From IMG/VR virus record IMGVR_UViG_3300012232_000010, positions 33,723 to 97,722 of that record: DNA of 64,000 nucleotides; one strand, 5' to 3'. This document shows, in pieces, positions 3,146 through 35,221 of the stretch. Position 1 is the first letter of the stretch. The number at the start of each line of letters is the position of its first letter. The stretch is from a virus (lineage: Duplodnaviria > Caudoviricetes). A program made the translations under genes and the position numbers. Under the pieces are notes generated by a model. The model was not told the origin of the DNA. It saw only the letters and a program-made list of their open reading frames with translations, and ran no database searches.

Positions 3146-3634
3146 CTAAGAAGCATAAGTTTCTCTTATCTTTTTAATTGCTTTGTTCTTACTTGTGAAT
3201 ACACAGTTGCTAGATATGTCTAACTTTTCAGATATTTCTCTAAGAGTATTGTTTTCTAAGTAATACATGACTAGTATATTTCTTTCTCTATCCGTCAGTT
3301 TTTCTAGCATTTCCGCAATGAATATACTGTCGTCTTGCGAGCCATCCTTAGCGATTGAAGAAACGGTATTATCATATATGTTTTTACACAAATTCTTCTC
3401 TCGTCTTATGTATTTCAAGATATTTCCGTGGACTGTTCTGTATAAATAATTATTGAAAGACCCCAATTGATTATTATAATAAATCATAGCATAAAGTAGC
3501 TTAACTTTGGCTATAGCCATGAGTTCATCAGGGTTTTTATACTTGAAACCAGCCACTATCTGGAATAAAAGCTTTACTTTACTTTTATAGTAATAGTTGT
3601 AGTAAGAACTAGTTATTCTTCTTCGTAATCTCAA
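3146..3634 (-). CDS. Sigma-70/ECF-like RNA polymerase sigma factor
   Basis: Region 2-like GSFNNYLYRTV; region 4 LTDRERNILVMYY...TLREISEKLDIS...KAIKKIR. Confidence 0.75.
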   Translation of the reverse strand: MRLRRRITSSYYNYYYKSKVKLLFQIVAGFKYKNPDELMAIAKVKLLYAMIYYNNQLGSFNNYLYRTVHGNILKYIRREKNLCKNIYDNTVSSIAKDGSQDDSIFIAEMLEKLTDRERNILVMYYLENNTLREISEKLDISSNCVFTSKNKAIKKIRETYAS

Positions 3635-3865
3635 TTAACATATCCCTAAATTGTGGCAAATCTGCGTCTTTAAAAGTGAAGCAGCAGAAATGACCATACT
3701 TACATTTGTAACCAAAAACGTATTTTATAGCAACCCAAGCCCGTTTAATGAAATTTCTATATTGACAAAGGAATATTTCTGTATATAATTCTTTATCAAT
3801 TTCGTCATACGAGAACTTAAGAGTATGCTCTGGGCTATAACAATAACACTCAAAAAACTTAGTCA

Positions 3866-4699
3866 TTACACCTTCCTAAACTTCGATTCTATATATTCTA
3901 TCCCGCTTGGAGATTTTTCTACGGTAATTCCATGAACCAATAGTGGAAACTCCGCATCAACAATTCTAAACAACTTTATAGCAAGACAACGAATCTCTGC
4001 GTCTGCCGCCAGTGAACCACGCATTTCAATAAAGTGTCTGATAGCCCGGCCATTAAAAGTGGTAAAGCACTTAGTCTCTGTGGCGTTAGGCAGTACACTT
4101 CTAGCTGCTTCTCTGGCTTTCTTTCGACGCTCTGTTTTATCTTCAATGGTGGCATACATGCCGTTCAAATGATCCGTCAGAACCTTATAATATTCTACTG
4201 TCTTGCTTAGGTAAGCCCTATATTCTTCTAACACTTCTGGTTTCTGCGCACCTAATTCTTGAATAGCTGGCGGAATTACGAAATCTGTATCACTTTCATC
4301 TACATATCTTTGGCTCAATTGACTATAAGCCATACCAGCGCGGTGTCTGACTAATTCGTGAGTCAAACTACGAGAGACATTCCAGATTTCAAAATTCAAA
4401 TTGATATGTTCTAGTACACTACCATGTTGAACCTCTATAAGATGTTTGATATGATCATCGTGAGACCGACCCTTTTTAGCTTCTGAACCCTTTTGAGGCC
4501 AAGACATGTAACATGTTCGTCCCGCCATTTCGATTAGCCATTCGCCATCCCTGTCACCCAAATCTTGGTTCGAGTCTAGCTTATTTTGAAATTCTGGCCA
4601 CTCAAGATCGTGGTCGTCCAAAAATGCTGTTAGACCATTAATATCTATCACTGGTCTACCTACTAGCTTAACTTCAGCTTCTGTAACAAATCTAGTCAT
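3866..4699 (-). CDS. thyX: FAD-dependent thymidylate synthase
   Basis: AGRTCYMS, HGSVLEH, SRSLTHELVRHR..YSQLSQRY, AREAARSVLPNATET; start moved to ATG 4699 after AAGGAG. Confidence 0.95.
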   Translation of the reverse strand: MTRFVTEAEVKLVGRPVIDINGLTAFLDDHDLEWPEFQNKLDSNQDLGDRDGEWLIEMAGRTCYMSWPQKGSEAKKGRSHDDHIKHLIEVQHGSVLEHINLNFEIWNVSRSLTHELVRHRAGMAYSQLSQRYVDESDTDFVIPPAIQELGAQKPEVLEEYRAYLSKTVEYYKVLTDHLNGMYATIEDKTERRKKAREAARSVLPNATETKCFTTFNGRAIRHFIEMRGSLAADAEIRCLAIKLFRIVDAEFPLLVHGITVEKSPSGIEYIESKFRKV

Positions 4700-5489
4700 A
4701 AGTCTCCTTAATCTCATCAATTATTAACGAGTAATTACAATCGTACCATCCCGATGTACTTAACGCATTTATTTCTAACAAAAATGTCCCCTCTTTATTC
4801 TTTGCTATATCTACAACAAATAAATCATCAGGATACCAATAAGAACTCTTGATCATCCTTTCAGCCAAATATACTATAACTTCTGGAACATATTTATCAG
4901 GATCAAATCCTAAGTAATTTGTTTTTTCACAAAATGTTTTATACTGACAACCAGTTATGTATTTATCCTTGTTGAATATTAATCTATATTCGAAGTCTAT
5001 ATGCTTAACTGGTGCTACTACTAATTCATCATTTCTACCAAAACAAGAATTGATATAGTCTAAATCTTTAGGAGTATACACCCCTCCACAAAATCCATTT
5101 GGCTTATAACCAACTGCTGGTCTAACAAATAGATTGTTATTCGGATGGAAGAAGCATTTATCTTCAAGGTCTCTACATTTTATAATAGAAAAATTCCAAT
5201 TGAAAAGATTATTGGGAAATCCTCTGTACTTTTGATAATAAATTCTCCAATCGTAATTTTCTATTGTGCAGGACGTAATAAGGTTAGGATTGTTGAGTTC
5301 CTTGATTTTTCTAATAAACTCTAGAGAGCCATAACAAAACGTTTTCTCTGTACAAGTGTCTAGGTGGGCGTATGAAGAATTTACAGCGCCTTTGTTGAAA
5401 ACTTTGTAGGGAATCTTTTTATTTTTCAAAACAGATATTAGAGTTTTAATATCGTCTTCAAAAACAAGGTCTTCTACTAAAAATTGCAT
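4692..5489 (-). CDS. ATP-grasp domain protein (DUF4343/R2K-like)
   Basis: YGS, LFVRP, EYRLIF, FVVDIA...LLEINALSTSGWY. Confidence 0.75.
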   Translation of the reverse strand: MQFLVEDLVFEDDIKTLISVLKNKKIPYKVFNKGAVNSSYAHLDTCTEKTFCYGSLEFIRKIKELNNPNLITSCTIENYDWRIYYQKYRGFPNNLFNWNFSIIKCRDLEDKCFFHPNNNLFVRPAVGYKPNGFCGGVYTPKDLDYINSCFGRNDELVVAPVKHIDFEYRLIFNKDKYITGCQYKTFCEKTNYLGFDPDKYVPEVIVYLAERMIKSSYWYPDDLFVVDIAKNKEGTFLLEINALSTSGWYDCNYSLIIDEIKETYD

Positions 5490-17613: not shown

Positions 17614-18709
17614 TTGAGACTCCAACGGGAAACCGTGGTACAGAGCCATTCGTATAGCCTTGGAATCTCACAGTAAGCATCTTTCCCAAAACTTTTTTAG
17701 GGTTGTCTAGATACTCTTTGAGTTTATCTAGCGACCCTTCTTTTTTACAATCAAACGAATTATCATCTTTAGTCACACATTCAAATACAGCGCATTGAGC
17801 CATCCTGCCGCGTCCGGGTTTTACCCCAACGATTCTGAACTCCGCATCATCGAATTCTTTTAGCTTTTGAAGATGATACGATCTTTTATTTTCATAAATA
17901 GCTTGAGAATTTCTTGCTATAGACCCCTCATAACCATTAGACCTATCTTCTTCAAAGCATAGCATCAATTCTTGTGGATCATTAACTATTCTTGTATCAA
18001 CCTTAACAATTCTATCGGTTTTAAAATTTATACTATTTATAACCAATAATCTTTGTTCAAAAGGTAAATTTGTATCCACTAGATCATATATATGATATTG
18101 TACAACTTCATGACCTTCTTTTGGACTTTCTGATCTTACGAAAGATACAATCTCTTCAAATTTATCTTTATAGTCGTGGTTATACAATTCGCCATCGAAT
18201 ATTATTAGATTTGGACTAGTTATACGTTTCTCTATAGCCGCAACAATATGAGGCATACTGTTTATAGGCTTTCTTGTGCGGGACCACAAAGTGCATACAC
18301 CGTTATCAACCATAGCTATACACCTTATACCGTCTAGCTTGGGTTGGGAATATGCTGGATATTTAATCTTGTACCCTTGTTTACTGAAAGTTTGAGCCAA
18401 CATTGGCTCAATACCGCCAGTAACAAATTTAGTATCTACTTCACTTTTTTGGGCTTTGCCCAAAGTCTTAACATAACCACTCTTAAGTTTCTTTTCCCAT
18501 TGGGCTTGGGCTTCTTTTACAGCCTGTTCTTGTGGGGTTGTAGCATTAGCCCTTCCAATATTCTTGCCTTTTTCTATAACATCGGATGTGGTTTGAATTT
18601 TACCACCGACTTGCCCGTATTCCTTTGTTATAGTATTTCCTTTAACGGAAATTGTCCATTGTTGAACAGACCCATTACTATTCAAAGAATATAAAGTATC
18701 GAAAGTCAT
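17597..18709 (-). CDS. ATP-dependent DNA ligase with N-terminal WGR-like domain
   Basis: QPKLDGIRC, DGELY, YHIYD, YEGSI, KLK, TVRFQG...PRFP; YGQVGG in the N-terminus. Confidence 0.9.
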   Translation of the reverse strand: MTFDTLYSLNSNGSVQQWTISVKGNTITKEYGQVGGKIQTTSDVIEKGKNIGRANATTPQEQAVKEAQAQWEKKLKSGYVKTLGKAQKSEVDTKFVTGGIEPMLAQTFSKQGYKIKYPAYSQPKLDGIRCIAMVDNGVCTLWSRTRKPINSMPHIVAAIEKRITSPNLIIFDGELYNHDYKDKFEEIVSFVRSESPKEGHEVVQYHIYDLVDTNLPFEQRLLVINSINFKTDRIVKVDTRIVNDPQELMLCFEEDRSNGYEGSIARNSQAIYENKRSYHLQKLKEFDDAEFRIVGVKPGRGRMAQCAVFECVTKDDNSFDCKKEGSLDKLKEYLDNPKKVLGKMLTVRFQGYTNGSVPRFPVGVSIRDYE

Positions 18710-18903
18710 TATGGATTATACCTCTTTCCCTTGCTTGGGTGTTTCATAATATCACTTTCTATCCACACCTTGAGTCTTGCTTCTAACTTATCTAAGGCTT
18801 CTGTAGATACGCTTGTGAGTTCTTTTTCCATTCCGGGTCGCAGAGCGGCCAGCTTAGCCATGATAAATTTCTTAACAGCACTTCTATTTAGAAGACTTGA
18901 CAT
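18709..18903 (-). CDS. Small histone-fold-like protein
   Basis: 64 aa from ATG 18903: LLNRSAVKKFI...TSVSTEALDKLEARLKVWIE...HPSKGKR resembles prokaryotic histone alpha1-L1-alpha2. Confidence 0.5.
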   Translation of the reverse strand: MSSLLNRSAVKKFIMAKLAALRPGMEKELTSVSTEALDKLEARLKVWIESDIMKHPSKGKRYNP

Positions 18904-19625
18904 TCTTATTCTCCAGAAATGTTTTTTTGACACATGCGGCAATTTGCTTGAAAGAAAGATTATCATTATCATTCAATACAGATGCGTATTTCTTTTCTTC
19001 ATTACTAATTAATATTGGATCAGGAGAATCGAATCCAAACCATTTTCTTACTTCATCCGGCAAATCGCATTCATCATCAATAAAACAAGACCCATCCCAA
19101 TGCCCTTTTCCTGTATTTTGTTGGTAAACATCACAGGCTACACCCAAGCAGCATCTACCAGATTCGTCTTTTAGGCAACCAGTAGTTTGCTTTTTCGCCC
19201 TCATTAAAGCGTCATACCATAATTGAATTCTAGTCTTAATAGGTTTCATACCACCCTCCTAAATTTAGTTATTCATTTCTTAGATAAGTATCTCTTACGC
19301 ATTCTGCAATTTCTCTAAAGGATAGTTTTTCAGAATCATTCAACGAACTAGCGGTTTTATCAAGTCCGTCATGATTCAAATAAGGATCGCACGATTCTAG
19401 ACCAAACCACTCTTGAACTTCAAGGGGTAGAGTATCTCCTTCTCCTTGAAATTTTAATGCTCCATCGTTGTCTTCCCAATACCCTTTTCCAGTATTTTGT
19501 TTATAAACATCGCAAGCTACACCTAGACAGCATCTTCCATTTTCATCCTTTAGACACTCTCTTGTTTGATCAGTTGCCTTTAGGAGCGCTCTATACCACA
19601 GTCTAATTCTATTTGCATTAGCCAT
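18884..19625 (-). CDS. Two tandem paralogous hypothetical proteins (18884-19249, 19269-19625)
   Basis: Share RI.LWY.AL, CLKDE.GRCCLGVACDVY.QNTGKG.W, LP.EV..WFG, LND...LSF..IA.CV. Confidence 0.8.
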
Positions 19626-19897
19626 ATTCTATCCTTTCATTAAATCTTCAAGTTCCTTGTTAACCTTATCAATAATCAACTGCTTAGCATCGGTAATATC
19701 CTCCCTGAAAGCGTCAATCCATAGAGATTTACCGTCTTGCCAAATCTTACAACCCCTACCTAATAGTGGACAATTCAATCTATATGAGAATACTTTGTTG
19801 ATATTTCTGGCATAGTAAAAATCCATAAAAACATCTTTACCATCCGGATGGCATAAACCATTAGACACAATTATATTCCATATACTATCTGCTGTAA

Positions 19898-20101
19898 TCA
19901 TGGATCAAATCTTCCTGTATCATTTTGGAAATACGCCCAATCACTAAGATCGGTATCTCCATCATTTTCATAATCGGTATAGAACCAACAATCCCATTCT
20001 GGGTCTTCCGGAGTTTCCGGCCTTTCCCAACCGGGTCTGACTAATGGACCAGTCCAACATTGAAACATCATAGCTGCTGCTACCAATAATGATCCGCCCA
20101 T
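19898..20101 (-). CDS. Small secreted protein with dockerin/EF-hand-like motif
   Basis: Hydrophobic N-terminus; DYENDGDTDLSDWAYFQN. Confidence 0.5.
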   Translation of the reverse strand: MGGSLLVAAAMMFQCWTGPLVRPGWERPETPEDPEWDCWFYTDYENDGDTDLSDWAYFQNDTGRFDP

Positions 20102-20102
20102 A

Positions 20103-20297
20103 TTACGCCCTTTCTCGTAACTTGGTTTTATTTCTAACTACTACAGAATGTTCTGGTTTTAAAACTTTTGAAGTTGTTGTCCCTAGAGCGGATTCTATTT
20201 CTGACATTGCTTTTTCACACTCTGGACCCATAAAACCCATTCCTTCGAGTTTGCAATTTCCATTTTCATCTATGTCTATAACTATTTCTTTTGCCAT
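20103..20297 (-). CDS. DUF2997-like protein
   Basis: IVIDIDENGNCKLEGMGFMGPECEKAMSEIESALG...KPE. Confidence 0.75.
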   Translation of the reverse strand: MAKEIVIDIDENGNCKLEGMGFMGPECEKAMSEIESALGTTTSKVLKPEHSVVVRNKTKLRERA

Positions 20298-21682
20298 ATA
20301 TTAACTCCTACTTTTAATGATTCCTGTTGGAGAGTTACCCTTTTTTATATCTAAGATTTCTTTTGTTCCGTTCTTGAAATAAATTATGCATTTCGCGCTG
20401 CTCCAACCCATATATTCTTTTGCGGGGCAACCATAGATGCAAGGTTCTGGATAAGCATCCCATTGTGATGCTCCGTACCATCTATCTCCACAACAACTGC
20501 AATCTAGACCTTCGGACACACCATCAAAATATATACCGGCTTTTCGCTTTGCTATAAAATTAGCTTCTTCAGAATCTTCTGCTTCTACTATAACATATTC
20601 AGCAACATCATCGCTTACATCAAAAGTGCCGCCAGAATTATTCTGTCTAAAGGTGTAAAACGAATTTTCAACCTTTGAATTGTTTTCTGTAAGCTTCCCA
20701 GATTTCTTTTCTCTCATCCTTATTCTCCAAAACAGAAAGTACGCCACACAAAGAATTCTTTCTACCAACCGACCTGTTGAAATTATCTGTAGGATTACAG
20801 ATCGCAATATATTCACCAGCTATTAAATCTGGATTATCCTGACTATATATTCTAGCTATTGTACATCTTCGTTGCTCACCGAAAGGTAAAGATATACCCC
20901 ATTCTGTTAATTGTTCGCAAGATAGTGTTTTGTGATAGAACTTAATTTTGTATTTTTCTGTCGTTAGGGCCACATTAATCTCCTATTTCTGTACACTCAT
21001 CTATTTCTATATCGTCAAGTCCGAAGTATTCGATTTCAGGATCACCGGCTTCCGGATCATCTTGAACCATTTCCGTAGCATGTTCTTCATCTTTTGCCTG
21101 AATAATAATTTCGCCATTAACGTTTTGTACACCATGCCACTTGATTTTAAATGTCGGCATCATCATCTCCTAATTCGTTACCATTCTCATCTATTTGAAA
21201 AAACTCTGGATCAGACCCTTGATTCATTAATTCTTCAGCGCATTCTTTTCCTGTTAACTCTTGTGTTTTAATATGATTGAAAACAGCGCTGCATCCACCA
21301 CTAGTAATTTCATAAGCTATTTCCTCTACGCTCATCCATTCTGGAATTTTTTCTTCTGACAAAACTTCTATTTCGTAGACTGTCTTATAGAATTTTCTAG
21401 GCATTTAGAGTCTCCAAAGTTTTTTGTAATTCTCTGATGTTTTTCTTATTCCATGCAACCTCAGCCTTTAAATTCTTCTGAAGTTTTTCCTTTGCATTTT
21501 TTAATTCTTTGTACCAAATATATCTTATATCTCGTCTAAATAATGGCCAATATTGATCGTTGAAATGGATTCTATCATTTTGCGGATATCGCTTATTAAT
21601 ATAGATTTCTTCACACACAAAGGATTTAATTTCATTGCGTTCTATCTTATAGTAAGTTTGTCCTCTTTTAAATCTAAATCCA

Positions 21683-21940
21683 TCAGTTGTTTTCATAATA
21701 TTCTCCCCCCGGTTGGAACATTCCGATTTCTTTCTCTATTGCATTTTCTCGATTTTTGTCCGATCCAACTACTTCGCCAGTCTTGGCGTGAATTATTTCC
21801 CATAATTGTTCTTGTTCATTGAACTCTACATTACTGGCTTTTTTAACGTTGGTGATTTTTCCGATTTCGTAAAGATTTACGAAATCATTATATAGAGTTG
21901 ACACATTTCCTTCTTCATCAATTTCGATAGTTGGAATCAT
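21683..21940 (-). CDS. Small conserved protein of the type recalled next to DUF1257/DUF2997 loci
   Basis: IEIDEEGNVSTLYND..NL..IG.I...KASNVEF....W..I...R..A...E. Confidence 0.5.
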   Translation of the reverse strand: MIPTIEIDEEGNVSTLYNDFVNLYEIGKITNVKKASNVEFNEQEQLWEIIHAKTGEVVGSDKNRENAIEKEIGMFQPGGEYYENN

Positions 21941-22185
21941 TTCATCATCCTTAAACAGGAAATAGTTCTACAAGTGATTCTGGAATCATGCAAGGCCCAG
22001 AAACAACATCGGTTTTACCCGATCCGCACTTCTTGCAAAGAACACTAGTTGTATAAGTCTTAACTTCTTCCTTTTTGATCATGGTACTTTTGACAAACGC
22101 GGGTGCCTTTCCGCATGTTTGACATTCTGATAGTGTCCACTTACCATTAATTGTTTTTCCAGCGATTCTTTTTCTCATAGTCTAT

Positions 22186-22710
22186 TCACCTTTCTATATG
22201 GGTCCATGTTTTATTTTGTTTTATATAATAAATGCTTCTGATTGAGATATTGAATTTTTTTGCTATATTAGAACAACTTTCATGAAGTTCTAATAATTTT
22301 AGAATCTTTTTTACTTTATTGTCATTTAATATTGCTTTCCACTGGTTTGACCCCCTATTATCTACTCTTGTGCCATGCTTTTTTGAATCTTCTTGATTTT
22401 CTTTTTTAGTACCCCAACACAAATTTGTTAATTCATTATTCCAAGGTTTTCCATCTAAATGTCTGCACTCCATTCCCGGAGGACATTGACTAATAAAAGT
22501 TTCTAAAACTAACCTGTGAATAAAATATTGTTTTTGATTTGTATTTTTGGAAAGATACACGCATTCATGCCCATACTTACTCCGTTTGACTGGTTTTAAT
22601 ATTCTGTCATTTTTTCGTTTAAATCCTTTTAATCTTTTGATTCTACCAAGATTAGAAACGGAATATAATCCTTCATAATTACGGATATTTTTCCATCGTT
22701 CTATTATCAT
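22186..22710 (-). mobile_element. NUMOD4-HNH homing endonuclease
   Basis: ERWKNI..YEGLYSVSNLGRIK; HRLV...F, RHLDG.PWNN.L.NL.WGT..EN. Confidence 0.9.
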
Positions 22711-23039
22711 AGGACTATTCTTCTAGTTAGTGGTTTCTTAACTTGTTCTGCAATAATCTTTTTCTCAATATTAATCTTATGTTCAACGGCTGCATTATTT
22801 TTTATGTGACCATTGCACATTGCAAAGAATGTTTCGGGACCAATTAATTCTATACCATATGCACGGGCCTTTTTCGCCTTGGTCGAAGTGCTATTCATAT
22901 CCATTATGACCAGTATAGTTGTTGTGTTAGTTATAGATTTCGAGACAGACGCTCCAGCCTTAATAGCCATAGCTTCCATTTCGTTTCGGGTGATTGGACC
23001 CTTTCCAGTAAAACAAAATGTCATATTCTTGTTTAGCAT
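22707..23039 (-). CDS. Stand-alone BRCT domain protein
   Basis: FCFTG....R.EME......GASVSKSIT.....LV.......TKAKKARAYGI. Confidence 0.85.
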   Translation of the reverse strand: MLNKNMTFCFTGKGPITRNEMEAMAIKAGASVSKSITNTTTILVIMDMNSTSTKAKKARAYGIELIGPETFFAMCNGHIKNNAAVEHKINIEKKIIAEQVKKPLTRRIVL

Positions 23040-23271
23040 CGTTTAATCCTAATTAACCACTTTAGCATTTTTTATTACTTTTACCTTTGTATCTAATGAT
23101 ACCTTGGACGGTCTTCCTTTTTCCAAATCAACAAGAATCACTTTATTATTCTCATCTAAGTCACTAAGGATATAGTATCTATCTTCATAGAGAACACAAG
23201 TGCCGAGTGTTATGCTACCAATACGTGTCAATTCATTAATATTATCAATTTCAATTTTCATTTTGGAATCC

Positions 23272-24252
23272 TTATATCAAGAGAAACTCACAATGTTTCC
23301 TAAAATCGTCTATATTTTTGAAGCCCGCATACGATATGCCAGACCGCAAAGCACCATTGTATCTAGCTAATAGATTTTCTACCGACTCACCCAAATCCAA
23401 TAGGTTAGTCTTTCCTTCTGGGCAATCATTATTTACTTTGCCCAACCATTGTTCTTGGACGGAACGACTAGCCATCCCCTTGTATACCTTTTTCTTAATG
23501 CCGCCAACGTCAATTACTTCAGCGGCGCTTTCTGGGCATCTTGCAAAGATAGAACCGGCCATGACAGATGAAGCGCCAGCCCCGATAGCCTTAGTGAAAT
23601 CCGCTGGCTCTCTTATTGATCCGTCACTTATTATTGGAATATTGTATTCCCTAGAATTAAGTTTACAATCGTACACGGCACTAAATTGATTCTTCGTACA
23701 ACCCGCCGTATTCGCCGTTATACAGGCACTACCACCACCTATACCAACCTTAATAGCATCAACCCATCCCCTGAACATTGGGAACATTTCTGGATTAATC
23801 GTGTTACCAGCAACAACCCGAACGGTAGGATACATATCCTTTATCGTCCTGCACATCTTTAAAACTTGCTTACTAAATCCATGAGCAACATCGACAAATA
23901 TACAATTAGCCCCACCTTTATTTATCAGGCTTTCTACTAGAAGATAGTCATTAGTTTTTATACCTATAGACACTGCTGTTACTGGACACCTATCTGATAT
24001 TTTCTTTGTTTCTTTAATATAATCGAAATCATACCGAAACGCTCTATGTAAAACCCCAAGCGCTCCTAGCTCATAAAGCTTAACACAGAAATCCGCATTG
24101 ACTACGCTGGACATATTTGCGGCTATAAGAGGGATTGGTCTAAATATTCCCTTTATAATTTCGCTTTCTGTAACAACGTCAGACCTACTTATGCAGACAT
24201 TTTCCTTCTGCTTTATTGCAACTTGATTGAATCTATATGACTGTTCAAACAT
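23272..24252 (-). CDS. IMP dehydrogenase/GMP reductase family protein
   Basis: PLIAANM, VDVAHG, KVGIGGGSACIT, IISDG, KAIGAGA..VM.GS, YKGMAS, PEG. Confidence 0.9.
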   Translation of the reverse strand: MFEQSYRFNQVAIKQKENVCISRSDVVTESEIIKGIFRPIPLIAANMSSVVNADFCVKLYELGALGVLHRAFRYDFDYIKETKKISDRCPVTAVSIGIKTNDYLLVESLINKGGANCIFVDVAHGFSKQVLKMCRTIKDMYPTVRVVAGNTINPEMFPMFRGWVDAIKVGIGGGSACITANTAGCTKNQFSAVYDCKLNSREYNIPIISDGSIREPADFTKAIGAGASSVMAGSIFARCPESAAEVIDVGGIKKKVYKGMASRSVQEQWLGKVNNDCPEGKTNLLDLGESVENLLARYNGALRSGISYAGFKNIDDFRKHCEFLLI

Positions 24253-24522
24253 TTTTAGTATCTCTCAAAACGTGGAACATGAATGGAATTCCGTATTTAT
24301 TTACATCTATCATTATGAAGTTTATATTTAGGAATTCGGGAAAAGACAAGTATCTGATACTCTTGTATTTTTTCCAGTCGCTACCCATATATTTTTTACG
24401 ATTATAGAATACAAAAGTTTTTTTGATTAGCCAGTCATTATTCCCCCATATAAGTAAAGAACTTTTATGAGACCCTATTCGGTCTCTTATAAATTCTATT
24501 GACCAATTTCTAATTTCCAGAA

Positions 24523-24936
24523 TCATCTGTATCCCTTAATGTGGAGTCTTTGCTTATTTCCGGCCAGTTTTTCCCTACTAACTATACGCCCCCTAGCCTC
24601 TTGTTGTTCTTTTATTGTGTGATATGCATAATTTCCTTTAAGGTTATTCAACCACGCTTTATTATATCTGCTGCTATCGTAACTAGAAATTATAGCTGTA
24701 TAGTTTCCATTTTCTGTTTTAACAAATCCTAAATCGTTACTGGCGCTCCCAACAAATTCTCTTCTTATAATGATATGTGCTTTGTCGGCTCTAACATCTC
24801 CCTGATACCCTATTAGGTTTTTTGGGTCGGTATGGACTTCTATTTGATTCTTAGTCCAATTTCCAGTTTCCATCAAGGCCGCTATTAACGCACTTTGATT
24901 TTTGAACTCTGTTTGAACATTACAATAACTAGACAT
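24523..24936 (-). CDS. DUF1257 (Ycf35)-like protein
   Basis: MS....QTEFK...AL..AL, L.GYQGD.R...A.I.IRR..VG.ASNDLGF, II..YD. Confidence 0.75.
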   Translation of the reverse strand: MSSYCNVQTEFKNQSALIAALMETGNWTKNQIEVHTDPKNLIGYQGDVRADKAHIIIRREFVGSASNDLGFVKTENGNYTAIISSYDSSRYNKAWLNNLKGNYAYHTIKEQQEARGRIVSREKLAGNKQRLHIKGYR

Positions 24937-25613
24937 TAAAGTTTTCTCCAATCGCATTCCTTAGCAAAGAATCCATCTTCTATCAAGACCACTTGATTTT
25001 CTGGGAAAAGTCTATTGTATTCTTTCACAAACTCATAGATATTCATACCATCAAAATAAAGTCTTATATTTTTCAACAAAATATCCTTTGGTATATCTTG
25101 AGTTTTTGGTAATTTGTAATCGTTAAACATTAATTACTAATTCTCCATTACATATCTGTTGCTGTTAAATCAAGCGGCTCGACCATAGATTCATTATCTG
25201 TTCCGCACTCTTCACCAGAATTTAATCTGACAAATCTTACGGGCCATGCATCTTTACAATCTGTTAGACAAAATCTTCCATCAGTCCTCATGCAAATCCA
25301 AGAAGTTTCCGGGCTAGAATCTTTACATGGCCAATATTTAAAACAATCTCCCGGCCTAGTTGATCCTGCCGCTATAAGTCTTGGTTTATTCCTTAAATTT
25401 GTTTTCATTTATTCTCCTACCAAGAAATTGAAACTAAGACTCTTTCATCCTTTTTTTCTGCCCCATTAGCCAATAACCACTCTACTGTTTTGGGAAGATA
25501 TTCTCCATCTAGCCACACACATCTATAAGAATCGTTTGGCTGTTCATCGCACACTTCATCATGAACTTCTCTAGGCATATCCAACCAATTAAAGACCTTC
25601 ATAGTCTTGTATT

Positions 25614-26600
25614 TCATATAACTACCTTCCTCTTCAAACCCTTAATGAATTGACTAGTCTGTTCATTTTCCATAGATGCTGCTTTTCTAATACCGTTAGT
25701 TGCGCTTAGGATGGCGCTTTGCAATGCTGGACTTTCAAGTGTTTTCCCATTGAATTCTGCATCCAAGAATTGCTCCCTAAATTCATTCAACATCTTTTCT
25801 AGATCGGAATCTCCGAATACATTAAGCATCTTGAACTTATCTATGTACTTACGGAATGACGTTAAGGTTTTCGGTGAAAGCTTCTTACCCTCTTCCTCAT
25901 CAGCAAATGGCGTACCATTGATTCGACACTTTACCAAGTCGCAGAATTTGATAACTTCTTCACGCATAGAACCCACGTATTGTTCTACGAATGATCCGAC
26001 TTCCTTTTGCATCTTTTCCTTCATCTGTCTAGATTTCTCTAGCTTAGCTTCATTTTCTTCAATAATATGTGACACAGACACCCCCTGAAGACTATTCAAT
26101 CCAGCGATTCTGAACAAATGCCAATCGAAGTAGAAGCGGGACCGCAAAGATTCTGCTGTGGGAGGGTAGAATCGTTTTAGACACTTTTCAAAGAATTCTG
26201 GATGACGCTGCTTAACCTCATCCTTAAGATCATTAAATCTAACAATGAACGAGTCAACAACATCAAAGAACTCTTTTCTGAATTGCTTCAAATTATGTTC
26301 TAGGTCTGGCACTATTTTAAGTGGCACAAAGAATGAATTGGCTATCCCGAATGGGACCGAAAATTGCGAAAGATAATATCTTGCTCTTTGCTCTATTTTG
26401 GAGATAGCTTGAATTTCACTTTTTGATACCAAAAGCTTCCTGCCAAGATTTACTAGTTCATCAGGAAGTGCTTTTGTATCAATTCCTAGACTTTCACAAT
26501 CTTCCCGCGAAACCATGCGCCTACCAGACCATGAGCCGATTGATAGGGACACTAGACAACCAACATCAAAAAGGTTTAATGTTTCATTTGTTTGAGTCAT
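25614..26600 (-). CDS. DUF3150-like protein
   Basis: LVSLSIGSWSGRR, LP.ELV.LG.K.L, RAR.YL...SVPF, FFVP, YP....L..RF.F.W. Confidence 0.7.
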   Translation of the reverse strand: MTQTNETLNLFDVGCLVSLSIGSWSGRRMVSREDCESLGIDTKALPDELVNLGRKLLVSKSEIQAISKIEQRARYYLSQFSVPFGIANSFFVPLKIVPDLEHNLKQFRKEFFDVVDSFIVRFNDLKDEVKQRHPEFFEKCLKRFYPPTAESLRSRFYFDWHLFRIAGLNSLQGVSVSHIIEENEAKLEKSRQMKEKMQKEVGSFVEQYVGSMREEVIKFCDLVKCRINGTPFADEEEGKKLSPKTLTSFRKYIDKFKMLNVFGDSDLEKMLNEFREQFLDAEFNGKTLESPALQSAILSATNGIRKAASMENEQTSQFIKGLKRKVVI

Positions 26601-26758
26601 ATTTGATTCCTAATCTAAGAAAGAAAAATAACCATCACCTATATATTGGATTTCTCTATCACCATCATAAATTCTATTATACTCTTCTACTAATTCTTCT
26701 GGCTCTAAGTGCATATAAGCTTGCGCTATCATTTCAACAACATCACTATAATCTAGGC

Positions 26759-28303
26759 TCATACAGAAACCTTTCTACCCTTCTTTTCTACGACTTCTTC
26801 TGGCTTGCTGTTCGCCAATTTTGCATGAGATGCACCCCATTCCCTCATAGCCTTAATCTTTTCAGGCTCTACTTTAGATATAGGTACTACTGACGGCGCA
26901 GCCATTTCCAAGTGGCTCTGATCCAATTCTTCATTCATACAGAAAGCGATTTTAAGTCCAGTCTTAACAATTTGTTCTATCTCTGATCCGGAATAATCCT
27001 TAGTCATCTCAACCATCTTATTCAGATCGAATTTATTCGGGTTTCTTCCTCTTTGAGCCAAATGAATATTTACTATAGCCTTTCTTTCTGAATCATTAGG
27101 AAGGTCTAGAAAGAATATAGAATCAAATCTTCCCGGTCTCAAAAACTCTGGCGGCAACCGATGAATGGTATTGGCAGTGGCTATGACATAGACTACGCTA
27201 GTTCTATCGCTAAGCCATTTAAGCACAGTTCCAAGAACTCTCAATGAAGCCCCACCATCCAATGAATCCCCAAACCCCTTCTCTATTTCATCCAATTGAA
27301 GTACACACGGAGACACACTCTCAATAATCTTGAAAGCTTGTCTTGTATTTTGTTCCGAAGAACCAACCAAAGACCCCATAAGAGACCCAATATCCATAGA
27401 TATTAGGGGAAGATTAAGCTCGGACGCAACACACAGACTTATTCTGGTCTTGCCACAACCCGGAATTCCAACCTGCAAGATACCTTTGGGACTTTCTATG
27501 CCGAAATCTCTTGCTTTATCCGAAAAGCATGGTTTGTCTAATAGGATAGTTCTTTTAAGAACTTCATAACCACCAATATTATTCAACCCACCGGCTGGTG
27601 GTTCTATATAGGTGAGAAGACCAGACGCTCTAATAACTGCTGCTTTTTCTCTTAGAATAGTCTTAATAGCTTCGTGATCTATAGTTTTGTGCTTTCTTAC
27701 GGCCAAAGAAACTCTATCTACGATTTCGCATGAAGTCATACCTTGACAGGCGCGAATAGTATCATCCATGATTTCTGGATTTATTTCGAATGGTTTACCG
27801 TCTTTGGTCTCGACACTTTCTCCCACAAATAAGATATTGTTTTTGATTTGTTCTTTGCTTGGAAGAGAAAAGTCTAGCGTTGTTATATCGTGTCTTAACG
27901 ACGTTGGGATTTCAAACTCTGCCCCCAAAAAGATAATGGTTTTCCCTTTGTGACTCAAGTGATTTTTAGACTCACTTATTTGAGAGATAACCGTATCGAA
28001 TTGATTATAACAATCTTTATTAACATAAGGCCAGAATTCTTTTACTACACAAACAATATTTTCTGGCATATTAAGAATTGTACCAATAACCATCTCTGGT
28101 AGACATGGGCCAATACCCTCTATTTTTGATCCGTCTACAGTAGACCATCCTGACGATACGGACCAAACTAGGGTTTGTTTGTTTATTTCTTTGCAGTGCT
28201 TCTCTATCTCTTCTGCCGCTCTTTCTTTCTCGAAAGTTGAGACATAGAGAAGTGCGTGACCGCTAAGGATATAGTCTTGTAGATCAGTTTTAAAGTTGCT
28301 CAT
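26759..28303 (-). CDS. Ycf46-like classical AAA ATPase (degenerate N-terminal module plus intact AAA domain)
   Basis: IGGYEVLK, PKGIL.VGIPGCGKT, GSLVGSSEQN, LDEIEKGF, ATAN, LPPEFLRPGRFD..FFLDLP, YSGSEIEQ, MREW. Confidence 0.9.
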   Translation of the reverse strand: MSNFKTDLQDYILSGHALLYVSTFEKERAAEEIEKHCKEINKQTLVWSVSSGWSTVDGSKIEGIGPCLPEMVIGTILNMPENIVCVVKEFWPYVNKDCYNQFDTVISQISESKNHLSHKGKTIIFLGAEFEIPTSLRHDITTLDFSLPSKEQIKNNILFVGESVETKDGKPFEINPEIMDDTIRACQGMTSCEIVDRVSLAVRKHKTIDHEAIKTILREKAAVIRASGLLTYIEPPAGGLNNIGGYEVLKRTILLDKPCFSDKARDFGIESPKGILQVGIPGCGKTRISLCVASELNLPLISMDIGSLMGSLVGSSEQNTRQAFKIIESVSPCVLQLDEIEKGFGDSLDGGASLRVLGTVLKWLSDRTSVVYVIATANTIHRLPPEFLRPGRFDSIFFLDLPNDSERKAIVNIHLAQRGRNPNKFDLNKMVEMTKDYSGSEIEQIVKTGLKIAFCMNEELDQSHLEMAAPSVVPISKVEPEKIKAMREWGASHAKLANSKPEEVVEKKGRKVSV

Positions 28304-28931
28304 AATAATCCTTTATAACATATCTGTTGGAGGATAATTGTCGTCTTCACCACCCTCTAGAAGTTTTCTCATTTGGAAGTTTTCATTTATTAATGAAGTA
28401 ATATCATGTTTATAATTTTCTATGAGAATTCTTATATGTTGAAGCAAAACTTCTTCTTCACTTTCATGCTTTGCAGATTTCGCCCTAGTTATTGGCGAGT
28501 CTGGTTCGCAATCAAGTTTATCAAGAATTTCTCTTAGTTCACGAAGCAACTGTTCCCTCTGCATAGTTTTCGTTCCCATATAGTATATTCCCTGCCTCTG
28601 AAATATCTCGTCCCATTCTTCTTAGAATCGAAGCGGCCTTTCTTTGGTTTCCAGTATGCTTCAATTGGTTAGCCATCGGGCCAGCCAGACCCTTGTTGCA
28701 AGTTAGAATAAACTTACCATTAACCTCATCTATTTCGATTGAAAATGCCGGTTCGCGTTCTTGTGCTTCCATAAGATTTCCTTTCATTTAACCCATTCCA
28801 TATCTCTACCACACTCTGGACAGATTGGATATCCAGAATCTAACAAAAATATTATATCTTGTTTAGACCTTAATTCTATTACTGTGTTTCCACAACCACA
28901 GTCGCACGTATTTTTGAACTCTAAAGTTATT

Positions 28932-32204: not shown

Positions 32205-32864
32205 TCATATAGCCCTCATTTCATTAGAGAGAAGATTGATTTCAATTTCCTTATCTAATGCGCATCCTCTTAGCCACTTAACAAACTGTGCGACCCTAAG
32301 ATTAGCCGAGACTTTGGCGCTATAAATGGTCATGGGAGTCGTACACCCAACATTAAAAGCTTCTTCATCGGTATACAAACTCGCCTCATAATGAGCATAA
32401 CTTTCATCGTCATGCACAACGAAAATTCTTGCATACTCAGCCGCAGTGCGACTATCTATAAACAAATCTCTTGCCGAAGCTGTGGATTCAAAGATTTGCT
32501 TTCTAGCTTCCATAGAGTCTACACAACTGAAAACCACTCCGTCATTAAAAGTCATTGGATTGAATTTATTTTTGATAACCTTGACTTCTATACCGGGATT
32601 AATCATTTTGATTACTTGGGCAACGGCATCTACCTTAAATTCCCCAATTTGACTTTCGAAAAAGCCTTGTGTGGCCAAATTAGGCACTTCGACCTTATCA
32701 TAATCAATAAGATCAAGTCTAGGAACACCAATTTCTGCCAACGTAAGAGCCACTTGCCTACCGCCAGCCCCAACACCGACAACCGTACACTTGGTATTCT
32801 TCAGCTTCTCTTCCGGAACTAATGTTCTCTGTCTAGCCGATCTGTCCGCCAATGATTGACTCAT
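32205..32864 (-). CDS. E1-like ThiF/MoeB adenylyltransferase
   Basis: RQ; VVGVGAGG; DYDKVEVPNLATQ; K; CVDSMEAR; DSR; candidate catalytic Cys in GCT. Confidence 0.92.
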   Translation of the reverse strand: MSQSLADRSARQRTLVPEEKLKNTKCTVVGVGAGGRQVALTLAEIGVPRLDLIDYDKVEVPNLATQGFFESQIGEFKVDAVAQVIKMINPGIEVKVIKNKFNPMTFNDGVVFSCVDSMEARKQIFESTASARDLFIDSRTAAEYARIFVVHDDESYAHYEASLYTDEEAFNVGCTTPMTIYSAKVSANLRVAQFVKWLRGCALDKEIEINLLSNEMRAI

Positions 32865-33735
32865 ATTGACCCTCCATATCTCTAAATGCCTCTTTCCATT
32901 CTTCCTCTTCGGAATGCTCTATGAAATTTTCTATAAGGGCTTCCCATTCTAATTTAGGATTTCTAATCCTGCGTCCATCCGGAGCGTAAAATCTTTCCAA
33001 TTCTTTATCATATTTGTAATAATCCTTTTCTTCTTCTACGTAGAAGAGAATACAATCACCTTCTTCGAAGATGAATGGATTTTCATCCTTTTCTTCCTCT
33101 TCAAGATTGGGAATTGTACTTGTTGTATCTCTATGGAAATATTGCTTGTTGTTTCTTAGGAATTCTGTGATAGATTCTTTTTCTCCCTTATAGAACTTAA
33201 CATCCTCTTTCGTGACTTTATCCTCATATTCCTTTTTCCATTCTGCTTGATTGCTAGCATCAAATGGATGAGAATAATCCACTTCAGACTTTATCTCACA
33301 ATCTATTCCGGGAGCAACATTGAATCTCATTCTTGTGTAATCCTTACCCTCATTAGCAAGGATATAGAAGATAGCACAATCTGGCAAAGAGAAATTAGTG
33401 TCGAAATTATCTTCGTCAGCGCCGCTTGGATTTGGACAATTGCCCGGATGTGTATGAATCCAAATTCGCTGACATTGCCAAGGGGCAATCCCCTTATCAA
33501 GCATGTCTTCTACGAATTTAATAGAATCCTCTTCATCCAAGTCAACTGACACAGAAGTGCATTTTTGCTTTACAAGACAGAAATCAGTTACTAGCATAGG
33601 GTCTTCTGTTCCAGAAATCCCATATCCGCCAATCTCTGTATCTCCCGCATCACGCATAAACATAATTTTAGCAAATGCATATGGGGTAAATTTTAAGATA
33701 CCACTAGGATTTTTCTTTGGTTCTAGAAATTCCAT
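32833..33735 (-). CDS. JAB/MPN+ metalloprotease (Ubl-processing/deconjugase) with acidic tail
   Basis: TEIGGYG (Glu) and WIHTHPGNCPNPSGAD = HxH-x7-S-x2-D JAMM motif. Confidence 0.88.
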   Translation of the reverse strand: MEFLEPKKNPSGILKFTPYAFAKIMFMRDAGDTEIGGYGISGTEDPMLVTDFCLVKQKCTSVSVDLDEEDSIKFVEDMLDKGIAPWQCQRIWIHTHPGNCPNPSGADEDNFDTNFSLPDCAIFYILANEGKDYTRMRFNVAPGIDCEIKSEVDYSHPFDASNQAEWKKEYEDKVTKEDVKFYKGEKESITEFLRNNKQYFHRDTTSTIPNLEEEEKDENPFIFEEGDCILFYVEEEKDYYKYDKELERFYAPDGRRIRNPKLEWEALIENFIEHSEEEEWKEAFRDMEGQYESIIGGQIG

Positions 33736-33744
33736 ACTTTCTCC

Positions 33745-34926
33745 TTAAGAAGTTGTTCTTGGACGCCGTGTTCGCCTAACGGGAGTTACTGGTTCTTCTT
33801 CCTTTTCCTCTTCTTTTTCGCAACACCACTTTTCATCATCGTGACATTTCGTACAAATTGTTGATCCACATTGTTTACAAGATTGTTCACAAGATTCGCA
33901 CAAACCTGACTCACATCCATTACATGTGCTTTCATGTTTTTTACAAATATGATCCCCGCATGAATCACAAGATTTACTACATTCTTCACATATGGTTTCG
34001 TCGCACACTTGACAAGTAGTAGCGCAATCTTCGCATAATGTTGTATCGCATCTTTGACAATACGAACTGTTTTCTGAACAACGATTACAAGAATGTGTTT
34101 CACATGCACCACAACTTATTGTCATATGTTCTGAACAGACAGAACAACCACAAGAGTCGCAACAAGAGGCACAATCATCACAAACACTTCTATCACATAT
34201 TTCGCAACAGCACCCACATTCTTCTGGGTCGTAACTACAATCGCATCTTTGGCATCTTACGCCTTCCCACTCATCTAAAGAATGGTATGGCGAATCCCTA
34301 TTATAGTTACTTAGAATATTGATTGCGAGATTGAACACATCCTCTATTCTTCCCTGTTGGGCCGCATCACAAATCAGACTATATCCTTCACCCATACACA
34401 AGGAATCACCATCTACGTGTGGATGCGGATAATTTTCTCCACCACCAGCATAGTTCGGCTCTAGTGCATTTATTGTTAGGAACGAATTAGGGGATGAGTC
34501 TATCAAATTTACAGCCACTCGGACTTCAAATCTTCCTAATCCAATATTTTCAAGAGTTATGGGGCTTGTTGTAACTATCAAATATCCGTCTTCATAAACC
34601 AGAGATTTGAAAGTATTGTTACAAGCTGTCAATTCGGCTAGATAATACTTCGAATCAAAAGATTCTTTCTCGAATTCTAGTCGTTTCTTGTAATCGCTTA
34701 CAATATCTAAAATTCTTGTTATTGCGGTATTAATCTTTTCTTCTATTTTAGAAGAAGCTAGACCAAGGTTGTTACTCATGGCCTTATTTCTTAGAACGTT
34801 ATTTTGGTGTATGGTTAGACTTGCATCTCGGACTTTATTGTGGTTGTATACCACATCTAGTTGTTTCTTTTTAGAAAGTTTGCTATGGAATATGTCTGCT
34901 ACTTCTTTTAGTTGTTCTTTTTTCAT
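33745..34926 (-). CDS. E2-like (UBC-fold) protein with N-terminal helical region and C-terminal Cys-rich repeats
   Basis: YPHPHVDGDSLCMGEG matches the E2 HPH/N...C signature; YN.DSPY; C-terminal CxxC-x4-CxxC repeats; start at ATG 34926 after GAGG. Confidence 0.75.
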   Translation of the reverse strand: MKKEQLKEVADIFHSKLSKKKQLDVVYNHNKVRDASLTIHQNNVLRNKAMSNNLGLASSKIEEKINTAITRILDIVSDYKKRLEFEKESFDSKYYLAELTACNNTFKSLVYEDGYLIVTTSPITLENIGLGRFEVRVAVNLIDSSPNSFLTINALEPNYAGGGENYPHPHVDGDSLCMGEGYSLICDAAQQGRIEDVFNLAINILSNYNRDSPYHSLDEWEGVRCQRCDCSYDPEECGCCCEICDRSVCDDCASCCDSCGCSVCSEHMTISCGACETHSCNRCSENSSYCQRCDTTLCEDCATTCQVCDETICEECSKSCDSCGDHICKKHESTCNGCESGLCESCEQSCKQCGSTICTKCHDDEKWCCEKEEEKEEEPVTPVRRTRRPRTTS

Positions 34927-34945
34927 AAATCCTCTTGCCTCAATA

Positions 34946-34971
34946 GGGGCAGCCCCTTTCGGAGCCGCCCC
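34946..34971 (-). promoter_or_regulatory. GC-rich 11-bp hairpin with GAAA tetraloop between the Ubl and E2 genes
   Basis: Minus strand GGGGCGGCTCC-GAAA-GGGGCTGCCCC (two G-U pairs). Confidence 0.7.
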
Positions 34972-34990
34972 ATTTTCCAATTAGACAGAT

Positions 34991-35221
34991 TTATTCACCC
35001 TTGACCTTGGCTGGTGCGGCGGTAACACGATCCCCATTGAGCAGAACATCATCCATGTCCGCTCTTTCCGAGAAACCGTTGCGACGAATACTGAAGATGT
35101 AATCGTCAAGGTCGCCCTCAAAGTGAACATCAAGGAATTCCCGAACGGTCACACCATCACGAACGTCGTGAGTCTGGGGGAGACCATTTCCCATGTTGGT
35201 AACAAAAGATACTGTGTTCAT
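34991..35221 (-). CDS. Ubiquitin-like (beta-grasp, ThiS/MoaD-like) protein
   Basis: 76 aa; V.DG.TV.EFL, I..NG, D.VL.NGDRV; C-terminus KVKGE; first gene of the E2-JAB-E1 run. Confidence 0.8.
   Translation of the reverse strand: MNTVSFVTNMGNGLPQTHDVRDGVTVREFLDVHFEGDLDDYIFSIRRNGFSERADMDDVLLNGDRVTAAPAKVKGE

Follow-up and report, generated by a model that had tools for sequence, protein, structure and literature searches.

Introduction

Could a phage carry, in one long array of genes, both enzymes that would attach a ubiquitin-like (Ubl) protein to targets and a p97-like motor that would unfold or extract the marked proteins? This question is raised by a 64-kb stretch of DNA (hereafter, the window), which spans positions 33,723 to 97,722 of the IMG/VR virus record IMGVR_UViG_3300012232_000010, a linear record of 97.7 kb with a CheckV completeness of ~58%. 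Here, a module comprising genes for a AAA ATPase and four smaller partner proteins lies 4 kb from a cassette of Ubl, E2-like, JAB, and E1 genes, with unrelated genes in between. Coupling of ubiquitin tagging to an unfoldase of the Cdc48 type lies at the heart of protein quality control in eukaryotes. Bil/Bub conjugation was shown to work only recently, and a dedicated unfoldase was unreported in the literature that we searched.

A first-pass annotation made from the sequence of the window had proposed that the AAA protein extracts or unfolds Ubl-tagged proteins as part of one larger system, and had suggested co-occurrence statistics as a check. We find that the module and the cassette are tightly linked across phages and bacterial islands and that the ATPase belongs to the p97-like clade. 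We also discuss how far these results go toward a single pathway.

Results

Two arms in one phage genome

All five genes that the first-pass annotation had grouped as a co-oriented AAA, DUF3150, DUF1257, small-partner, and DUF2997 set interleaved with unrelated genes are present on the minus strand at the positions it gave. Pfam scores exceeded the cut-offs wherever a model exists, and the small partner, which we call sm85, is conserved. The module genes are as follows.

26759..28303, minus strand: Ycf46-like, predicted tandem AAA ATPase of 514 residues; Pfam AAA (PF00004), 88.1 bits, cut-off 21.2, residues 276-400 only
25614..26600, minus strand: DUF3150 protein of 328 residues, directly after the AAA gene; PF11348, 76.3 bits, cut-off 24.9
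24523..24957, minus strand: DUF1257 (Ycf35-type) protein; PF06868, 41.9 bits, cut-off 22.2
21683..21940, minus strand: sm85, a conserved 85-residue partner; no Pfam family, defined by family alignment
20103..20297, minus strand: DUF2997 protein of 64 residues; PF11211, 34.1 bits, cut-off 24.1

The cassette genes are on the same strand.

34991..35221, minus strand: Ubl precursor of 76 residues with the C-terminus KVKG-E; defined by family alignment
33745..34980, minus strand: putative E2-like protein of 411 residues with a C-terminal CxxC zinc-finger array; assigned by motif only
32833..33735, minus strand: JAB/JAMM metallopeptidase of 300 residues with an intact JAMM motif; Pfam Prok-JAB, 17.6 bits, sub-threshold
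32205..32864, minus strand: minimal ThiF-type E1 adenylase of 219 residues; Pfam ThiF, 99.6 bits

The Ubl cassette is seldom found away from the AAA module

Multiple results link the two arms. First, a search seeded with the JAB protein recovered eight viral records that carry the cassette, and the AAA gene was present in seven of them. Provirus L090 contains all nine genes in the order DUF1257, DUF2997, AAA, DUF3150, sm85, Ubl, E2-like, JAB, and ThiF. Second, the suggested co-occurrence statistics were strongly positive: the JAB family occurred in 14 of 401 sampled Planctomycetota genomes, in up to six copies, and the AAA family was found in 13 of these 14 genomes versus 115 of the 387 JAB-negative genomes (Fisher p=2.3e-6). 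Third, we applied our own hidden Markov models (HMMs), including the divergent L090 type, to 20 fetched Planctomycetota cassette neighborhoods, five of which were cut by contig ends, leaving 15 evaluable. Nine of the 20 were full nine-gene blocks in the L090 order, three had AAA and DUF3150 genes with no DUF1257 or DUF2997 detected, and one had DUF3150 only. Within ~7 kb of the cassette, the AAA gene was present in 12 and the DUF3150 gene in 13 of the 15 evaluable loci; for AAA, the probability of this result under a rough chance rate of 0.01 per locus is ~4e-22. These nine blocks, together with L009 (see below) and L090, bear out the statement in the first-pass annotation that planctomycete loci join the module with a Ubl/E2/JAB/E1 cassette, with the E2 assigned by motif only. 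Recurrence of the same families together in dozens of unrelated loci argues that the association is not a matter of chance.

Finally, the nine families lie side by side in each of three gene orders, exemplified by the phage, L009, and L090. When prokaryote species were scanned with a single genome for each, 79 loci from many phyla were obtained, and the cassette lay beside the module in L009 only, where the nine genes form a compact block of ~64% guanine-cytosine (GC) content next to a tyrosine integrase. The GC content of the phage is 36%, a difference of 28 points. The island genes lie close together and run in one direction, as in a single operon. Flanks of the blocks are not conserved, and integrases or large serine recombinases recur alongside.

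The cassette or nine-gene block is present in up to six copies per genome (L107-L126; G243, G227, G320, G023). Such copies often sit on short contigs, close to recombinases of the serine or tyrosine type, and the block may belong to a proliferating integrative element.

A genome table built with the Pfam DUF3150 model had listed 6 DUF3150 genomes and 14 cassette genomes, with one shared. We rejected this table as an artefact, as divergent DUF3150 genes were found beside the cassettes. PF11348 misses the divergent DUF3150 of L090-type islands (L090:6842-7858; DUF3150 genes of L108-L125), and Pfam-based family counts therefore understate the module.

The ATPase resembles p97 and has one predicted active AAA domain

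The assignment of the AAA protein to the classical unfoldase clade by the first-pass annotation is supported by sequence and by structure. The best sequence matches in the PDB are the D2 domains of p97, VAT, and Cdc48 (1e-47), and the C-terminal half also matches PAN, CdvC, and FtsH models by sequence. In an AF2 model (predicted local distance difference test [pLDDT] 93.2; predicted template-modeling score [pTM] 0.88), strands and helices in residues 1-235 follow one another as in a AAA domain plus lid, and the top Foldseek matches of the model were p97, Cdc48, Rix7, and NVL, aligned over ~550 columns with TMq values of 0.6-0.66. These results support classification of the protein as a classical-clade, p97-like ATPase.

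No P-loop is present in the N-terminal half (about residues 1-235), and an hhalign comparison of N-half and C-half profiles was not significant (probability 0.13), so the D1-like reading of this half depends on the AF2 model and the Foldseek matches. The AF2 model has no p97-type N domain (the adaptor-binding double-psi barrel), as the two AAA halves take up all 514 residues. Taken together, the model reads as a tandem AAA protein with a degenerate D1-like half, an active D2-like half, and no p97 N domain.

The motifs of the window protein are GIPGCGKT, LDEIEK, ATAN, and RPGRFD, with S-L-V-G in the pore loop. In a 71-sequence alignment, residues of the Walker A and B motifs, sensor-1, and the arginine fingers (G279, G282, G284, K285, D338, E339, N378, R389, R392) were invariant. 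In pore loop 1, G314 was also invariant, V313 was present in 65 of the 71 sequences, and position 312 was most often Tyr (29 sequences) or Leu (28), with Phe and Trp in 5 each.

The Ycf46-like label has indirect support: Cyanobacteriota is the commonest phylum in one of the clusters that neighbor the N-domain in the ESM Atlas, and the genome of Synechococcus elongatus, used as a control, matches DUF1257.

The small partners of the ATPase

Members of the DUF1257 family begin with an invariant Met-Ser, nearly always followed by His, and end at a fixed position. The true start of the window gene is probably the ATG at 24936 (M-S-S-Y) rather than 24957, because the former gives the invariant Met-Ser start of the family. 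We considered and dropped the C-terminal GYR of this protein as a proteasome-type HbYX motif, as other members end in ERG, ERF, or SQW. The DUF2997 family has an invariant Gly13 and Cys27, a conserved LKPEY motif, and an acidic tail. Two DUF2997 proteins (L026:4190-4411 and L049:4581-4775) depart from the other family members in having GG-W or GGGLW at the C-terminus, and the DUF3150 gene is upstream of the AAA gene in both of these loci.

DUF1257 and DUF2997 are fused as a single open reading frame (ORF) in 14 loci, mostly from Firmicutes, which argues that the two act together. In a predicted structure, a clostridial fusion forms a single compact alpha/beta unit (pLDDT 91.9), whose best structural neighbors are the KA1 domains of Chk1, MARK3, and SAD-B (Z 9.5-10 over ~86 residues; root-mean-square deviation 2.5-2.7), and Foldseek weakly matched it to TBP-like domains in RnlA. 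Profile searches with DUF1257 and DUF2997 against PDB sequences returned only noise. With a signal modestly above background, the model points to a KA1/TBP-like binding-platform fold with no enzyme signature.

DUF3150 adjoins the AAA gene in the phage relatives and in L005-L012, and a divergent form is present in L090-type islands. In the ESM Atlas, DUF3150 fell among mostly viral DUF3150 clusters with no informative match. The sm85 gene is beside the module in 15 loci of our first set and ~13 more Planctomycetota loci, and in compact blocks it is positioned between DUF3150/DUF2997 and the Ubl gene. Invariant residues in the sm85 alignment are G11, G27, S36, E39, W47, R64, and E71. DUF3150 and sm85 are markers of a subtype of loci that contain the AAA/DUF1257/DUF2997 trio.

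The putative conjugation cassette

In the Ubl family alignment, Gly75 is invariant and is followed by a tail of 1-8 residues; the L009 homolog weakly matches ThiS (E 0.006). The JAMM residues E34, H94xH96, S104, and D107 are invariant in the JAB family, and sequence searches of the PDB gave weak, Rpn11-like matches. The nearest solved relatives of the E1 are UBA5, MoeB, MccB, and ThiF, at about 1e-8 to 1e-9.

The 411-residue protein has been assigned as E2-like by motif and operon position only. Its family has an invariant H186-P187-H188 and C195, with an HPH-x6-C pattern in 29 sequences, and its alignment is too divergent for a pattern scan. A profile search of the N-terminal region against PDB sequences returned noise only, and the C-terminal tail weakly resembles B-box, RING, and PHD fingers. 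The CxxC array of this protein (33745-34980) varies in length among relatives, and the L009 version is short of ~70 alignment columns. PADLOC gave only generic E1-E2 and JAB matches for the cassette.

The AAA/DUF1257/DUF2997 trio in bacteria

Co-occurrence of the AAA, DUF1257, and DUF2997 families in bacteria, taken as established in the first-pass annotation, was also seen here. Iterated searches with the window proteins covered 83 fetched loci, and among the 82 that contain the AAA gene, DUF1257 was present in 51 and DUF2997 in 56, usually within 3 kb and on the same strand. Trio loci often hold two or three AAA paralogs. One AAA clade (Nitrospirota, Gemmatimonadota, Actinomycetota) is mostly without DUF1257, genome-wide as well as locally. 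Apart from four phage relatives, the loci share no further phage gene with the window. In L014-L062 and other bacterial loci, genes beside the trio include those for radical-SAM/Fer4_12 proteins in 17 loci, FGE-sulfatase-domain proteins in 14, and Hsp70-like proteins in 9. In the phage relatives L002 and L004, a radical-SAM gene lies between the ThiF and AAA genes; there is none between the two arms of the window.

Phage context and neighboring genes

The GC content of the window is 33-44%, and nearly every gene is on the minus strand. Upstream on the contig are genes of a T4-like replication set (DNA polymerase as two ORFs, primase, DnaB-like helicase, UvsX-like recombinase, and ribonucleotide reductase), which places the module in an early or middle gene region of a large tailed phage. 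The two polymerase ORFs are ~13 kb apart and outside the window (G000 3486-5249 and 18483-20789; L127:3486-5249 and L128:483-2789), and they match one PHROG family, phrog_405, in its C-terminal and N-terminal parts.

Megablast of this region against GenBank phages gave no match, and neither did a scan of viral contigs with the AAA protein alone. Full-length AAA homologs with 47-70% identity were found on contigs whose length is often 100-180 kb, and the order of the window, from the Ubl genes through DUF2997, is kept in three fetched neighborhoods, a case of synteny between related phages. The other genes that accompany the module are as follows.

28313..28787, minus strand: two small ORFs of 88 and 82 residues, directly upstream of the AAA gene
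23272-24252: unrelated, interleaved IMPDH/GMP-reductase-like gene (Pfam)
22707-23039: unrelated, interleaved BRCT gene (Pfam)
22186-22710: unrelated, interleaved HNH gene (Pfam)
20301-20816: unrelated, interleaved DUF7296 gene (Pfam)

Homologs of the 88- and 82-residue ORFs occupy the equivalent position in L001-L004 and L085-L089 and are absent from the bacterial islands, marking them as features of the phage lineage only. In the relative L002 (15315-16841), an HNH endonuclease and an IMPDH/GMP-reductase-like domain form one 508-residue ORF, whereas the HNH gene of the window is separate and lies beside BRCT, which suggests that a mobile HNH element moves within the region.

One relative, L004:1-21560, is the segment at about 155-177 kb of the closed 4.9-Mb chromosome of a Heimdallarchaeota genome (CP070695.1), and at least 17 kb of it consists of phage-like genes in synteny with the window. 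GC content and skew break at ~17.5 kb, and cellular-looking genes begin there. A complete related provirus in Heimdallarchaeota is not supported, as this genome contains no homolog of the DNA polymerase of the phage; the L004 region may be a provirus remnant, a gene transfer, or an assembly chimera.

Discussion

A candidate tag-and-unfold pathway

The genomic linkage, together with the features of the individual proteins, leads us to favor an explanation in which a two-arm system of nine genes is carried by mobile elements that belong mainly to Planctomycetota, whether large phages, proviruses, or small integrative islands, and in which the window contains a dispersed copy of this system. Its role might lie in host takeover, defense, or counter-defense. 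Arm 1 would be the conjugation cassette, consisting of the Ubl precursor, the E2-like protein with its zinc-finger array, the JAMM peptidase, and the minimal E1. JAB would trim the Ubl tail after Gly75, the E1 would adenylate the Ubl, and Cys195 of the E2-like protein would carry it and transfer it to target proteins. Arm 2 would be the p97-like motor (one pseudo-D1 ring, one active D2 ring) and its partners, DUF1257 and DUF2997 as a predicted KA1/TBP-like platform plus DUF3150 and sm85. This arm would recognize proteins marked by Arm 1 and unfold or extract them, and the four small partners would serve as adaptors, as Ufd1-Npl4 does for Cdc48. Unrelated insertions (HNH, BRCT, GMP-reductase-like, and others) would have spread the phage module over 8 kb of one long co-directional gene array. 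The cassette is rarely found without the module, and the module is commonly found without the cassette, an asymmetry suggesting that the cassette is an add-on that feeds the motor.

We put the chance that the two arms form one tag-and-unfold pathway at about even. A more specific version, in which KA1-like DUF1257/DUF2997 adaptors hand Ubl-conjugated targets to the pseudo-D1/active-D2 ATPase in a self-contained prokaryotic pathway encoded by mobile elements of Planctomycetota and by their large phages, and thus equivalent or ancestral in bacteria and phages to the ubiquitin-Cdc48 system, is one that we hold tentatively, with somewhat more doubt than belief. Of the interpretation offered in the first-pass annotation, the classical AAA protein, the co-occurrence, and the planctomycete link have stood up well, and action of the AAA protein on Ubl-tagged proteins keeps the standing of a proposal.

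Several observations weigh against a single pathway. Among the proteins, position 312 in the pore loop of the window AAA protein is Leu rather than an aromatic residue, although this is also true of 28 of the 71 family members; the E2-like protein had no match to E2 in Pfam, PADLOC, or PDB sequences; the KA1/TBP-like match of the DUF1257-DUF2997 fusion (Z 10) is just modestly over the stated background of the tool; no partner protein resembles a known ubiquitin-binding domain or adaptor; and no protease partner was identified, with no IetS-like protease seen in the neighborhood. Among the loci, the cassette occurs without AAA in L091, a virus estimated to be 97% complete, and stands alone in two of the 20 Planctomycetota cassette neighborhoods (L107 and L113). 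Many loci are related by descent, and the counts therefore overstate the number of independent events. Four planctomycete-type genomes, one of them a complete chromosome, contain the five-gene module and no cassette anywhere. These four are near-identical on a quick AAA tree, in which the phage and L009 groups form one well-supported clade and L009 is basal to the cassette-less genomes, which fits a single loss of the cassette. Finally, most trio loci are without any Ubl genes, which argues that the core activity of the trio is independent of Ubl. This distribution suggests that the AAA/DUF1257/DUF2997 trio is an older, autonomous core to which the Ubl cassette, dependent on this core, was added.

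Independent cargo, a regulatory switch, or a sulfur carrier?

The autonomy of the trio is also what might be expected if the two arms were independent cargo modules that share mobile elements, for example as two defense or counter-defense functions, with no physical coupling. The loci with only one arm (cassette alone in L091, L107, and L113; module without cassette in four genomes) and the 4 kb of unrelated genes that separate the arms in the phage fit this explanation. So do patterns of divergence: the cassette proteins are roughly equidistant from the L009 and L090 types, whereas the module proteins are closer to L009, a difference that could reflect different rates or separate joinings. 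Independent modules would not readily explain, however, why adjacency is kept across three gene orders, a 28-point GC gap, and different element types, why the cassette is almost never away from the module (linked in 13 of 15 loci and 7 of 8 viral records), or why the island genes are tightly packed and co-directional like those of one operon. We regard independent cargo as rather unlikely, although it is the strongest of the alternatives.

Alternatively, the Ubl might be an on/off switch, conjugated to a protein of the module (AAA, DUF1257, DUF2997, DUF3150, or sm85) and removed by JAB. The co-occurrence evidence serves this idea as well as it serves a tag-and-unfold pathway, and dependence of the cassette on the module, with no dependence in the reverse direction, is consistent with it. 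Possible sites or features for attachment include the invariant Cys, conserved Lys-containing motifs (LKPEY), and flexible tail of DUF2997 and the invariant N-terminal Ser of DUF1257. The same residues of DUF1257 and DUF2997 are conserved in trios without Ubl genes, however, and thus did not evolve for Ubl attachment. We consider a switch improbable.

Least likely, and in our judgment very improbable, is a sulfur-carrier, cofactor, or peptide-modification pathway in which a C-terminal thiocarboxylate or peptide is activated, nearby radical-SAM enzymes take part, and the AAA protein is a maturation chaperone, as the minimal ThiF/MoeB/MccB-like E1, the weak ThiS match of the L009 Ubl, the radical-SAM genes beside the trio and in L002 and L004, and the clustering of DUF2997 and ycf35 with the ferredoxin gene fed7 in cyanobacteria (PMC4284462) are countered by a JAMM peptidase and a Cys-bearing HPH...C zinc-finger protein typical of conjugation systems, by the absence of a sulfurtransferase, ThiG, or MoaE in the blocks, and by the lack of a radical-SAM gene between the arms in the window.

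If tagging and unfolding are coupled as we favor, then the system would for the first time open the Ycf46, Ycf35, and DUF2997 proteins of cyanobacteria and plastids, which have long gone unexplained, to biochemical study. A nine-gene operon that joins both activities would allow the coupling to be tested directly in Escherichia coli and could reveal how phages and mobile islands use protein tagging during infection. If the arms are independent, they would still be two widespread mobile modules, and the model would still present Ycf46-type ATPases as tandem AAA proteins with a pseudo-D1 domain.

Comparison with known systems

The AAA domain matches the PADLOC IetA and NCBIfam IteA models of the IetAS anti-phage system. 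We rejected membership in this family, as the NCBIfam IteA score of 93.8 bits is far under the cut-off of 510 bits and covers the AAA domain only, and as no IetS protease partner was seen.

The module shares the Pfam families DUF1257 and DUF2997 and a AAA architecture of ~500 residues with the Ycf46/Ycf35/DUF2997 set of cyanobacteria and plastids. In cyanobacteria, DUF2997 and ycf35 cluster with fed7 (PMC4284462), and Ycf46 has been linked to stress, CO2, and circadian phenotypes (PMC13683863). Unlike that set, the genes described here are phage-borne, are accompanied by DUF3150 and sm85, and are tied to a Ubl cassette.

The cassette recalls the prokaryotic Ubl operons of Iyer, Burroughs and Aravind (2006; PMC1779556), in which E1-like, E2-like, JAB, and Ub-like proteins occur together and for which a zinc-finger protein was proposed as an E3-like adaptor. 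That study does not mention AAA (0 occurrences) or link the operons to an AAA/DUF1257/DUF2997/DUF3150 set, and in the literature on DUF1257, DUF2997, DUF3150, Ycf46, Bil, and the Ubl operons of the Aravind laboratory we found no description of a link between the module and the cassette.

The gene order Ubl, E2-like, JAB, and E1 is that of BilABCD/Bub systems (bioRxiv 10.1101/2023.09.26.559546, 10.1101/2023.09.04.556158), and the conserved C-terminal Gly and tail of the Ubl, with predicted removal of the tail by the JAMM peptidase, parallel the action of BilC on BilA. The cassette differs in its single-domain Ubl, its minimal 219-residue E1, the long CxxC array of its E2-like protein, and its presence in phages as well as bacterial islands. 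No Bil chain was among the matches listed in PDB sequence searches with the JAB, E2-like, and E1 proteins, and the Bil preprints (bioRxiv 10.1101/2023.09.26.559546, 10.1101/2023.09.04.556158) leave a AAA partner unmentioned.

The most instructive comparison is with Cdc48/p97/VAT, which with Ufd1-Npl4 is a ubiquitin- or SAMP-directed segregase in eukaryotes and archaea. The phage ATPase differs in having no p97 N domain, in a predicted D1 domain that is degenerate and without a P-loop, and in its location on mobile elements, and no similarity to Ufd1, Npl4, or UBX proteins was detected for DUF1257/DUF2997, DUF3150, or sm85. Like Cdc48, p97, and VAT, however, the phage protein is a classical-clade ATPase with, in its model, two stacked AAA domains, and its gene is coupled in the genome to a Ubl conjugation set.

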